NCBI GenBank assembly: GCA_022828145.1
Contig: JAJEJA010000009.1
Location: 31,254 to 95,253, forward strand
Length of the DNA: 64,000 nucleotides
Direction: 5' to 3'
Source of the DNA: Candidatus Poribacteria bacterium
GTDB lineage: Bacteria; Poribacteria; WGA-4E; WGA-3G
Under the pieces are notes generated by a model, which had not been told where the DNA came from, made no database searches, and saw only the letters and a list, made by a program, of their open reading frames with translations. This document shows positions 19,762 to 21,986 of this stretch, piece after piece (within the stretch, counting starts at the first letter, position 1; each line of letters begins with the position of its first letter). The position numbers were made by a program, and so were the translations under genes.

Positions 19762-21126
19762 ATGAATAAAACTCGTGAGGATTTAACAGAGGGAAGCATA
19801 CTAAAACATCTGTTTAGACTTGCTATACCGATAACATTCGGATATATTCTTCAAGATGCATTTAACATTGTTGATATGATCTTTGTAGGTAGATTGGGAC
19901 CTGCTGCAATTTCCGCCGTGGGTGTGAGTGGAAACCTGTTGCGTTTGGTAGGTGTGTTCTCTCTCGGTATCTCAACAGGTGCTGGGATTATGGTGGCACA
20001 ATATCTTGGAGCAAGAAACTTTGCACAAGCTGGACATGTGGCAAATCAAGCGATCATATTAGCTTTCATCTTCGCAATTGGGATAGGAATTTTAGGATAT
20101 CCTTTAGCTGAATTTGGCATTCGGACATTGAGAATTGATGACCCTGACATAATACAGCTCGGAACCACTTACATGCATATTATTCTCGTCGGAATCAGCA
20201 CAATGTTCTTATCCATGACACTCGGTTCAATCTTTCGTGCTGGCGGCGATGCTGTCACACCGATGATAGTATTGGTCTTCTCAACCCCTATCAACATCGT
20301 GCTTGATCCGTTGTTGATATTCGGTTTATGGGGTTTTCCTGAACTTGGCGTAGCAGGTTCTGCGTATGCTACACTCATCGGTAGAGGTATCGGTGTTCTT
20401 ATACTCTTATTCCTATGCTGGCGTGGACGAGCACCCATCTCATTTCGACACGTGCAGTATAGACCAGACCTGGTTGAAATGCTTGACATTTTTAGGTTAG
20501 GCATATATAGTTCAATGCAAGGTTTCTGGCGTCATGTGTCACGATTAGGTTTCTTATGGGTAATAGGTCCGTATGGTAAGTTCGCTGTCGCAGCATATAC
20601 ACTCTGTATGCGTTTACGTATATTAGCAATGAATCCTGGATTCGGTGTAGCAAACGCTGTTGCACCAGTTGTTGCTCAGAATTTAGGTGCAAGGAACATA
20701 GAAAGAGCCGAAAAAACAACTCACATAGGTAACCTTTTAGGCACATCGCTTATGACGGGAATAGGTATAATATTTCTGCTATTCCCACAGACGTTTCTTA
20801 GCGTATTCACTGATGATGGGGAAGTGATTAAAATTGGAAAAGCTTTTCTACAATGTTTATCACTAACATTCGGATTTATCGCTTTCTCCTTAGTTCTGGG
20901 TAAAGCACTGAATGGGGCAGGTGATACATTATCACCCATGTTAATTACACTCGCCGCACAACTGGGAGTCGGTTTAGGACTTGTAATTCTATTGTCTAAT
21001 TTTCTCGGTATAATCGGAATCTGGATCGGAATTGCTCTCTCAAATGTTGTCCAAGGCGGCGTCATGTGGCTTTGGTATCGTACGGGTAAATGGAAAACTA
21101 TTAACGTGATTAAAAAAGGTAGATGA
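19762..21126 (+). CDS. MATE-family multidrug/sodium efflux transporter
   Basis: 454 aa and 12-TM, with a NorM-like N-terminus. Confidence 0.8.
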   Translation: MNKTREDLTEGSILKHLFRLAIPITFGYILQDAFNIVDMIFVGRLGPAAISAVGVSGNLLRLVGVFSLGISTGAGIMVAQYLGARNFAQAGHVANQAIILAFIFAIGIGILGYPLAEFGIRTLRIDDPDIIQLGTTYMHIILVGISTMFLSMTLGSIFRAGGDAVTPMIVLVFSTPINIVLDPLLIFGLWGFPELGVAGSAYATLIGRGIGVLILLFLCWRGRAPISFRHVQYRPDLVEMLDIFRLGIYSSMQGFWRHVSRLGFLWVIGPYGKFAVAAYTLCMRLRILAMNPGFGVANAVAPVVAQNLGARNIERAEKTTHIGNLLGTSLMTGIGIIFLLFPQTFLSVFTDDGEVIKIGKAFLQCLSLTFGFIAFSLVLGKALNGAGDTLSPMLITLAAQLGVGLGLVILLSNFLGIIGIWIGIALSNVVQGGVMWLWYRTGKWKTINVIKKGR

Positions 21127-21155
21127 ATTACTACCAGAAAGGAAATTGTATTAAT

Positions 21156-21986
21156 ATGGACAAGGGTTTTGAGAATCCCCAACTCGTTATCACAGTTGAC
21201 GAGTTGATGAACAATCTTGATGATAAAAATATCTGTATAGTTGATACACGTCCAACACATGAATATTTAAATGGACATATTCCAGGTGCATTACATTTGG
21301 ATTTATTCGGTTTAAGCCTTATCAATACAACCCAAGAGATGTTTGATGCATTTATGTGGATGATAGCATATCTGTTTCAACAACGCGGTATTGATCCTAC
21401 AAAGACAATCATCTGGTATGAGGATATATCGGGAACACGCGCATCCCGTGGACTCTGGTTCTGTGAGTATCTCGGAATTATGAAGACGCGTCTACTGGAT
21501 GGTGGTTACAAAGCCTGGTTAGCTGCGGACGGACCTGTAAGCACAGAGGGGGTTGTACCACCTGCAGTTGCACCGTTCACAGGAGAACCACAGAAACATT
21601 TGCATCTAAGTGCTGATTCAATTCATGAACAATTGAATCAGGACGACTTCATTCGATTGGATACACGCACCGCTGATGAACACTACGGCAGAGTCGCTCG
21701 GGCTGAACGCGCGGGTGCGATTCCCGGTTCTATACATATTGAATGGCTCAACAATCTTGACGAGAATGGTGCTTTTAAACCAGCACATGAACTCCGGGAA
21801 TTGTATGAACCGGTCGGTATCACACCGGAAAAGCAGATAATGTGTTACTGACAGGGAGGATACCGTTCTTCCCAAACCTACTTAGCGTTACGCTTATTAG
21901 GTTATCCGAATGTAAGTAATTACATCGGATCATGGAAAGAATGGGGAGACCGGCTGGATTTGCCGGTTGAAATACCAACGTCATAG
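21156..21986 (+). CDS. Two-domain rhodanese-like sulfurtransferase with an in-frame TGA (21849-21851) at the catalytic Cys position. Candidate selenoprotein, or otherwise a nonsense pseudogene
   Basis: Upstream ORF ends ...[11 protein letters not shown]. The same frame continues [44 protein letters not shown] to a TAG at 21984. The stop aligns with the Cys of the rhodanese active-site loop C-x-x-G-x-R (IMCY[U]QGGYRS versus IVVYCRSGRRS). An alternative start is ATG 21123. Confidence 0.6.
21854..21873 (+). promoter_or_regulatory. Hairpin 2 nt downstream of the in-frame UGA, a candidate bacterial SECIS-like element
   Basis: GGGAGG-AUACCGUU-CUUCCC: a 6-bp stem with one G-U pair and an 8-nt loop containing GU. 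The apical loop lies about +12 to +19 from the UGA. Confidence 0.3.

Follow-up and report, generated by a model that had tools for sequence, protein, structure and literature searches.

The gene described here lies in a 64,000-nucleotide stretch of Candidatus Poribacteria bacterium DNA (assembly GCA_022828145.1, contig JAJEJA010000009.1, positions 31,254 to 95,253 of the forward strand), which we refer to as the window. It encodes a two-domain rhodanese and is split by an in-frame TGA that falls on the codon of the catalytic cysteine. Our overall explanation, which we draw from sequence comparison and to which we assign a probability of roughly 85%, is that this is a selenocysteine (Sec) rhodanese gene carrying an RNA structure specific to the Sec forms, which would serve as a distal selenocysteine insertion sequence (SECIS).

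An in-frame UGA at the catalytic position of a rhodanese

The open reading frame (ORF) that begins at position 21123 closes at the TGA in 21849-21851, and the frame then stays open for another 44 codons, up to the TAG in 21984-21986. A first-pass annotation, made by a model from the letters of the DNA, had reported this split and proposed a candidate Sec sulfurtransferase; its coordinates and frame were borne out. The predicted coding sequence (CDS) and its Sec codon are:

21156..21986, plus strand: predicted selenoprotein CDS, two-domain RhdA/SseA-type rhodanese of 276 aa including U232 (translation, two Pfam PF00581 matches, homologue starts, match to RhdA 1E0C)
21849..21851, plus strand: UGA, predicted Sec codon at the catalytic position, ..IMCY-U-QGGYRSS.. 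(TGA in 78/80 loci, CQGGYRS in Cys forms)

The read-through product is matched by Pfam family PF00581 in two stretches (E 2.2e-36), that is, two rhodanese domains per chain. Its best match among solved structures is RhdA of Azotobacter vinelandii (PDB 1E0C; E 1e-40, residues 5-273), and it also aligns over its full length with the Thermus rhodanese 1UAR. In the alignment with 1E0C, the TGA coincides with the catalytic Cys (H-C-Q-T-H-H-R-S in RhdA versus Y-U-Q-G-G-Y-R-S), and the segment U-Q-G-G-Y-R-S aligns with C-Q-G-G-Y-R-S/A of 67 Cys homologues, so that the earlier placement of the TGA at the active-site Cys stands. The nucleophile-first, six-residue active-site loop (C-x-x-G/x-x-R-S/T) is present in the C-terminal domain, with Sec as its predicted nucleophile. 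The top NCBIfam match, 3-mercaptopyruvate sulfurtransferase, scored 110 bits, under its cut-off of 250 bits. RhdA, a tandem-domain thiosulfate:cyanide sulfurtransferase, shares the two-domain layout and the loop type with the Poribacteria protein; nevertheless, its nucleophile is Cys rather than the predicted Sec, and its loop residues are THH rather than GGY, on account of which the substrate preference may differ.

Conservation of the UGA codon and of the downstream frame

The Cys-substituted product was searched against 5.8 billion proteins, from which the top 120 matches were taken, and the DNA was compared with the 80 most similar loci in GTDB species representatives, of which about 70 belong to Poribacteria, 7 to Latescibacterota and a few are unclassified. 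The homologous codon is TGA in 78/80 of these loci, a frequency that chance cannot account for, and TGC in 2/80. The 44-45 codons located 3′ of the TGA are open and highly conserved in every one of the 80 loci, with synonymous variation. Among the 120 protein matches, 102 (63-93% identity) are annotated as proteins of 231-259 aa, mostly 231-234 aa, which end in ...[C/S/A]Y precisely at the TGA. The full-length homologues (273-299 aa, 54-61% identity) carry Cys at this column, and distant homologues read C-Q-G-G-Y-R-S. The Sec/Cys column across orthologues, together with the conserved downstream frame, supports the Sec sulfurtransferase proposed earlier, which held in each of the comparative tests suggested alongside it.

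An interrupted ORF can also result from a nonsense mutation, from a sequencing or assembly error or from pseudogene formation, or the functional product may be the truncated protein of 231 aa; the first-pass annotation had itself named a Cys-to-TGA mutation or a sequencing error as its alternative. A single TGY-to-TGA change would suffice, and the public annotations do describe a protein of 231-233 aa that ends at the TGA. Nevertheless, the occurrence of the TGA in nearly all of these species-level assemblies, which are independent and come from two phyla, and also in other metagenomes, together with a downstream frame of 44 codons kept open with synonymous variation, excludes nonsense mutation, sequencing error and pseudogene. 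In addition, truncation would remove the catalytic loop as well as the final third of the active domain, and the TGA is followed by an RNA structure specific to the Sec forms (see below). A shared systematic artefact is implausible given that both short-read and long-read assemblies were obtained independently, and we consider this alternative effectively refuted, with practically no probability left to it.

Based on these comparisons, the UGA almost certainly encodes Sec at the catalytic Cys position of an RhdA-type rhodanese. Unclassified metagenome contigs from JGI and other sources yielded eight more Sec forms that share the RNA structure (L092, L106, L122, L126, L127, L131, L152 and L157), which, along with the Latescibacterota loci, extends the Sec rhodanese family beyond Poribacteria. 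More than 100 database clusters, including GenBank entries MDE0684969.1, MCY3742294.1, MCE2401197.1 and MCG9128434.1, are annotated as proteins of 231-234 aa that end at the Sec codon; the Poribacteria entries, all truncated, are named in GenBank as 'rhodanese-like domain-containing', 'sulfurtransferase' or 'hypothetical'. This truncated annotation is a systematic mis-annotation: the records of these clusters miss the catalytic residue, and the actual products are selenoproteins of ~276 aa.

A conserved RNA structure specific to the Sec forms

Synonymous sites were compared between 85 Sec-form and 68 Cys-form DNA sequences, and two zones of constraint were found in the Sec forms only. The first zone comprises codons +1 to +7 after the UGA, where TCT-TCC is nearly fixed and the Tyr codon is TAC in 85/85 Sec forms, against a background of 57% TAT in the same genes. 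The second comprises codons +33 to +39, with CGG in 81/84, CTG in 81/81, GAT in 80/82 and CCG in 81/84 of the sequences; the amino acid at +35 itself varies among the Cys forms.

RNAalifold, applied to 84 Sec forms over 141 nucleotides (nt), gives two helices, an 8-bp helix 1 (21863-21870 with 21937-21944) and hairpin 2. Helix 1 begins exactly 11 nt past the UGA, is extendable to 11 bp and is joined to hairpin 2 by a 3-nt linker. In the window, the parts of the structure are located as follows:

21852..21862, plus strand: 11-nt spacer between the UGA and helix 1, CAGGGAGGAUA (alignment)
21863..21870, plus strand: helix 1, 5′ arm, CCGUUCUU, codons Y-R-S-S (RNAalifold, covariation, minimum free energy (MFE) folds)
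21872..21874, plus strand: helix 1 extension, 5′ side (CCA), beyond a 1-nt bulge, pairing with 21933-21935 (MFE folds)
21875..21932, plus strand: looped-out coding segment within helix 1, with lineage-specific internal hairpins whose register is not conserved (folds)
21933..21935, plus strand: helix 1 extension, 3′ side (UGG, Trp codon) (pair counts)
21937..21944, plus strand: helix 1, 3′ arm, AAGAAUGG, codons K-E-W-G (RNAalifold, pair counts, mutual information)
21948..21968, plus strand: hairpin 2, 7-bp stem GACCGGC/GCCGGUU with the 7-nt loop UGGAUUU (21955-21961), candidate SelB-binding apical hairpin (pairing, covariation, energy)

Over both helices, 99.1% of the cells are paired, compared with 38-54% in slid-partner controls, and 0/500 shuffles reached this value. 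The arms of helix 1 are paired in 99.7% of the cells and hairpin 2 in 98.5%, and the extension of helix 1 is 86-100% paired, without covariation. Compensatory pairs were found in helix 1 at alignment columns 24-99 (CG61/UA20/UG3) and 27-96 (UA72/CG10), and in hairpin 2 at columns 108-124 (CG61/UA23) and 109-123 (CG81/AU3). Three of the four compensatory changes are confined to synonymous sites; the change at 108-124 also turns Val (GUC) into Ile (AUC). For each covarying column, the helix partner is the reciprocal top mutual-information column among 140 others, which makes compositional (GC) drift an unlikely cause of the covariation. The G-G-A of the hairpin 2 loop is invariant in the 84 Sec forms, with a loop of the type UGGAUYU, and the hairpin has an energy of -12.0 kcal/mol (z-score, -3.4).

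The same pairings are nearly absent from the Cys forms. Helix 1 is fully paired in 82/84 Sec forms versus 1/66 Cys forms, and hairpin 2 in 75/84 versus 3/66; the fold of the 127 nt after the UGA has a mean z-score of -3.05 in the Sec forms and of -0.04 in the Cys forms. Single-sequence MFE folds of the window (-43.7 kcal/mol; z-score, -4.2) and of distant members show both helices together with the 3-bp extension of helix 1. At locus L068, a one-codon deletion lies in the looped-out segment, and both flanking helices are kept. In the window, this segment (21875-21932) contains two strong local hairpins, AACCUACUUAGCGUUACGCUUAUUAGGUU and AUCCGAAUGUAAGUAAUUACAUCGGAU; it is folded differently in other lineages, which suggests that it is kept compact without a conserved register.

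The RNA structure also appears to have shaped the protein sequence, given that R-S-S and R-L-D are constant in the Sec forms at sites where the Cys forms mostly have R-A-A and R-x-D. Three Cys genes (L079:5589-5729, L137:2188-2328 and L150:2188-2328) bear the Sec-form hallmarks C-QGGYRSS and GDRLDLP and keep 13-14 of the 15 pairs of helix 1 and hairpin 2, having lost the GG of the loop (CUCGAUU, CUAGAUU) or one stem pair. Their appearance is that of recent reversions from Sec to Cys, with the RNA element in decay. A search of Rfam gave nothing above the gathering thresholds in the window and, around the gene, chance-level matches only at E <= 10. Judging from pairing, covariation and the comparison with the Cys forms, we are confident that a conserved RNA structure specific to the Sec forms is real.

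A candidate SECIS acting at a distance

The bacterial SECIS (bSECIS) model of Zhang & Gladyshev, summarised in PMC13188914, describes an upper stem of 4-16 bp, an apical loop of 3-9 nt with a G in its first two positions, an MFE <= -7.5 kcal/mol and an apical loop located 16-37 nt from the UGA. Hairpin 2 lies within the stem, loop, first-two-positions G and energy limits of this model. Since helix 1 closes off 82 nt, the effective path from the UGA to the loop would be 11+3+7 = 21 nt, inside the range of 16-37 nt.

We propose that helix 1 would loop out ~82 nt of coding sequence, bringing hairpin 2 toward the UGA. With the UGA in the A site, helix 1 would be located at the mRNA entrance of the ribosome and hairpin 2 beside it, accessible to SelB; the SelB.GTP.Sec-tRNASec complex would bind hairpin 2, and the UGA would be decoded as Sec. 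The one-codon deletion at L068 is a tolerance to be expected if the segment is looped out. The structure ends 16 nt short of the stop codon, from which it follows that a leading ribosome would essentially have to finish translation before the next one could decode the UGA as Sec. The minimal spacing of the E. coli SECIS is reportedly 11 nt from the UGA, as for helix 1, and an engineered distal SECIS, placed within the 3′ untranslated region (3′ UTR) in E. coli, is said to have worked once base pairing looped out the intervening sequence. On this structural model, the bipartite structure formed by helix 1 and hairpin 2 is probably a SECIS working at a distance by way of a looped-out helix.

Compared with the canonical bacterial SECIS of the E. 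coli fdhF type, the 7-bp upper stem of hairpin 2, its 7-nt loop with GG at positions 2-3 and its energy of about -12 kcal/mol are all within the model. In contrast, the helix located at +11 nt is, in the Poribacteria gene, not a loop-bearing stem; it is a long-range clamp around ~66 nt, and the hairpin follows after the 3-nt linker. The engineered E. coli element reportedly has in common with the proposed one the principle that a far SECIS works through base pairing that loops out the sequence in between; however, it is artificial and located in the 3′ UTR, whereas the Poribacteria element is natural, lies wholly inside the CDS and is conserved across two phyla. Action far from the UGA would also be shared with the 3′-UTR SECIS elements of archaea and eukaryotes. 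The latter are located in untranslated regions, carry the GAA_A bulge or the AUGA/GA quartet motif and depend on SBP2-type or other adaptors; neither motif was found in the Poribacteria element. We lean slightly toward regarding a natural bacterial SECIS whose candidate SelB-binding hairpin lies ~100 nt after the UGA as a distinct architectural class.

Points against a distal SECIS and a local alternative

Several points weigh against the explanation given above, some concerning the RNA element and others the Sec machinery. The linear distance from the UGA to the loop of hairpin 2 is 103 nt, beyond the 16-37 nt at which canonical SECIS loops are located. The loop has GG and no GU dinucleotide; the SECIS loops of E. 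coli and Moorella carry GU. Every one of the covariations is a GC<->AU exchange between sequences that are related, and independent events are modest in number, with at least ~3 clades for two pairs. Finally, a Sec-enriched local structure, hairpin B, competes with helix 1 and may have a role. Two local hairpins overlap the 5′ arm of helix 1:

21854..21873, plus strand: GGGAGGA-UACCGU-UCUUCCC, alternative conformer in competition with the helix 1 5′ arm (its strength is confined to the clade of the window)
21853-21869, plus strand: hairpin B, a triloop hairpin, consensus AGGGCGG-AUA-CCGCUCU; in the window, AGGGAGG-AUA-CCGUUCU with a central A x G mismatch

The first of these is the hairpin that the first-pass annotation had described as beginning 2 nt after the UGA and had placed where a bacterial SECIS sits. 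Its presence and stability in the window were confirmed (7 bp, -11.4 kcal/mol; z-score, -3.4); its status as a conserved recoding element was not, with 81% of the cells paired and the central pair unpaired in 61/71 distinct orthologous Sec-form sequences. Full pairing of this hairpin occurs in 5% of the Sec forms versus 10% of the Cys forms. Its loop, UACCGU (or AUACCGUU), has no G at positions 1-2 and lies 8-9 nt from the UGA, outside two of the bSECIS limits. As it is neither conserved nor Sec-specific and departs from the model in these two respects, we rejected it as a SECIS. Hairpin B is 96% paired in the 71 distinct orthologous sequences (94% in an enlarged set of 79 sequences) and is fully paired in 70% of the Sec forms versus 1.5% of the Cys forms.

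These observations bear on the possibility that Sec is inserted through a local SECIS right after the UGA, be it the hairpin first proposed or hairpin B, and that helix 1 and hairpin 2 serve some other Sec-linked purpose, which could be ribosome slowing, exclusion of RF2, mRNA stabilisation or regulation by selenium supply. The high and Sec-enriched pairing of hairpin B favors a local element, as do the enrichment of GGC as the codon of Gly+2 (65% versus a background of 21%), which only hairpin B explains, and the near-equal energy, in the window, of helix 1 and the hairpin first proposed (centroid fold, -43.2 kcal/mol; MFE, -43.7 kcal/mol). However, hairpin B shares with the other local hairpin the lack of a G at loop positions 1-2 and the UGA-loop distance of only 8-9 nt, and, with the UGA in the A site, the local nucleotides would be inside the mRNA channel of the ribosome. 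Neither local hairpin shows compensatory changes, and the covariation at the CGY and UCY codons tracks the helix 1 partners and not the local ones. Additionally, central mismatches occur in hairpin B in the window (A x G) and in the hairpin first proposed in most other members. On balance, we regard a local SECIS as unlikely.

Scans of the canonical range in the 84 Sec forms gave no conserved hairpin 16-37 nt after the UGA. With contiguous stems, a weak bSECIS candidate was obtained in 5/84 sequences, none of them the window; with suboptimal folds, some candidate was obtained in 40/84, and no position was common to more than 12. A hairpin at +23 to +45 nt (CCAAGCC-UAUUU-GGCGUUG), strong in some lineages and weak in the window, was rejected because its overall pairing of 57% was no higher than that of the shuffles. 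RNAalifold gave no consensus with only 48-87 nt after the UGA, and the structure emerged once 135 nt were included.

Selenocysteine machinery and read-through without selenocysteine

The remaining points on that side concern the machinery for Sec insertion. The 64-kb window contains none of the genes for tRNA-Sec, SelA, SelB and SelD, and it holds no tRNA at all. ARAGORN found 39 tRNAs in the window and the 80 loci, tRNA-Sec not among them, and a tblastn search with approximate E. coli SelA, SelB and SelD queries gave no match at 1e-5 in 1.6 Mb of related loci. The window has no other selenoprotein gene with which the SECIS loop could be compared, and the 1.6 Mb of related loci have no UGGAUYU-type hairpin after another in-frame TGA. 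Other conserved clusters of TGA-interrupted ORFs in the related loci included none that was coding-like. Support for the machinery comes from the literature and is limited to the level of the lineage: Slaby et al. 2017 reported SelA and SelB to be enriched in sponge symbionts and listed SelA, SelB and SelD COGs (Table S4) in all three Poribacteria genomes, bin70, bin44 and WGA-3G, and a 2026 study described Sec-containing group 4 hydrogenases in Poribacteria. The GC content of Poribacteria bin70 is 40.3%, near the 40.7% of the window.

Within the window, TGA is the stop of 10/45 long ORFs, including leuA and the MATE gene immediately upstream of the rhodanese, from which it follows that TGA is not globally reassigned in this genome, in agreement with what had been noted earlier for UGA as a normal stop. 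The UGA might still be read through without Sec, by a near-cognate Trp, Cys or Arg tRNA or by a UGA suppressor tRNA, giving a full-length enzyme that is not a selenoprotein. The missing Sec machinery in the window and the 1.6 Mb of related loci would fit such a reading. Structured RNA after a stop codon can stimulate read-through elsewhere, and termination is weak at a UGA with C as the next base; both count in its favor. On the other hand, the codon occupies the position of the catalytic nucleophile, where the homologues have only Cys, and such Sec/Cys pairing is the signature used in selenoproteome surveys. Selenoprotein catalogues already contain the family, SelA, SelB and SelD are encoded in Poribacteria genomes along with other predicted selenoproteins, and a TGY codon would give a Cys enzyme without the cost. 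Read-through without Sec is accordingly very improbable in our estimation, and decoding as Sec remains the reading that we prefer.

Relation to known selenocysteine rhodaneses

The first account of a Sec-containing 'rhodanese-related sulfurtransferase' (COG2897) came from the Sargasso Sea metagenome survey of Zhang, Fomenko & Gladyshev (2005, PMC1088965), in which it was among the new selenoprotein families. Later reviews include a Sec rhodanese family, and a 2026 listing has it as 'form 4', with the motif UxxG. The selenoprotein family itself is thus already known, since 2005, as COG2897 with UxxG, and the earlier remark that proteins with a Sec rhodanese domain are known from selenoproteome surveys was correct. 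The Poribacteria protein and the COG2897 Sec family have in common the PF00581 tandem rhodanese, Sec at the catalytic Cys, the UxxG motif (here, U-Q-G-G), an origin in marine bacteria and widespread Cys homologues. They differ in the expected location of the recoding signal: the Sargasso Sea survey predicts a SECIS directly after the TGA, whereas the Poribacteria gene has a conserved long-range helix and a hairpin ~100 nt downstream. We infer membership in 'form 4', whose published exemplars are AACY01016424 and MCY3690685.1, from domain type and motif only. The cluster member MCY3742294.1 (Ca. Poribacteria) has an accession number close to that of the exemplar MCY3690685.1, which is only suggestive.

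In these proteins, Sec would take the place of the persulfide-carrying nucleophile of the rhodaneses, and the active site would bear a persulfide-like Se-S (or Se-Se) intermediate during the transfer of sulfur or selenium. What is gained from Sec is a matter of speculation; it could be greater nucleophilicity together with protection from being irreversibly oxidised, or else a part in the trafficking of selenium.

Gene start and neighborhood

The true start of the gene is likely the ATG at 21156 (MDKGF...) rather than the one at 21123, based on the N-termini of the homologues, which read MDKGF/MxxKGY. At 21123, the upstream ATG, which is in frame, shares bases with the stop codon (TGA) of the MATE transporter gene, in the sequence ATGA (21123-21126). 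In the closest loci, L001-L005, synteny of the MATE and rhodanese genes is kept, with both in the same orientation, and they thus may form an operon. The other neighbors are ordinary and, with the MATE transporter, comprise DAHP synthase, LeuA, an M55 peptidase, an alpha/beta hydrolase, MoeA and acetyl-CoA synthetase.

The window is collinear with contig JAJDZB010000043.1, from a Candidatus Poribacteria metagenome-assembled genome, at 96-98.7% identity. The intergenic segment 21988-22042, right after the stop codon of the rhodanese gene, fails to align with L001 (10833-10909) and is the sole such part of the neighborhood, the contig being 97-98% identical. Elsewhere in the window, a minus-strand ORF at 2115-2517 contains the thiol-disulfide motif YDGACDFCSFC, which is DCC/DUF393-like, and is closed by a TGA that 27 open codons follow; this TGA looks like an ordinary stop and not like a Sec codon.

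Significance

If the distal SECIS is true, it would be a natural exception to the rule that places the bacterial SECIS immediately 3′ of the UGA, and SECIS-based predictors whose scan is limited to 16-37 nt downstream would overlook genes of this kind or assign them wrongly. It would also be the natural counterpart of the engineered 3′-UTR SECIS of E. coli and a plausible intermediate between the in-ORF SECIS of bacteria and the distal SECIS of archaea and eukaryotes. Its design principle could serve the expression of selenoproteins in bacteria without mutating the residues that adjoin Sec.

For the organisms themselves, the Sec form of this rhodanese is the rule in sponge-associated Poribacteria, and it is found in Latescibacterota and in unclassified metagenome contigs. 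This prevalence points to a selected advantage of the selenium nucleophile and to a selenium requirement of the symbionts.

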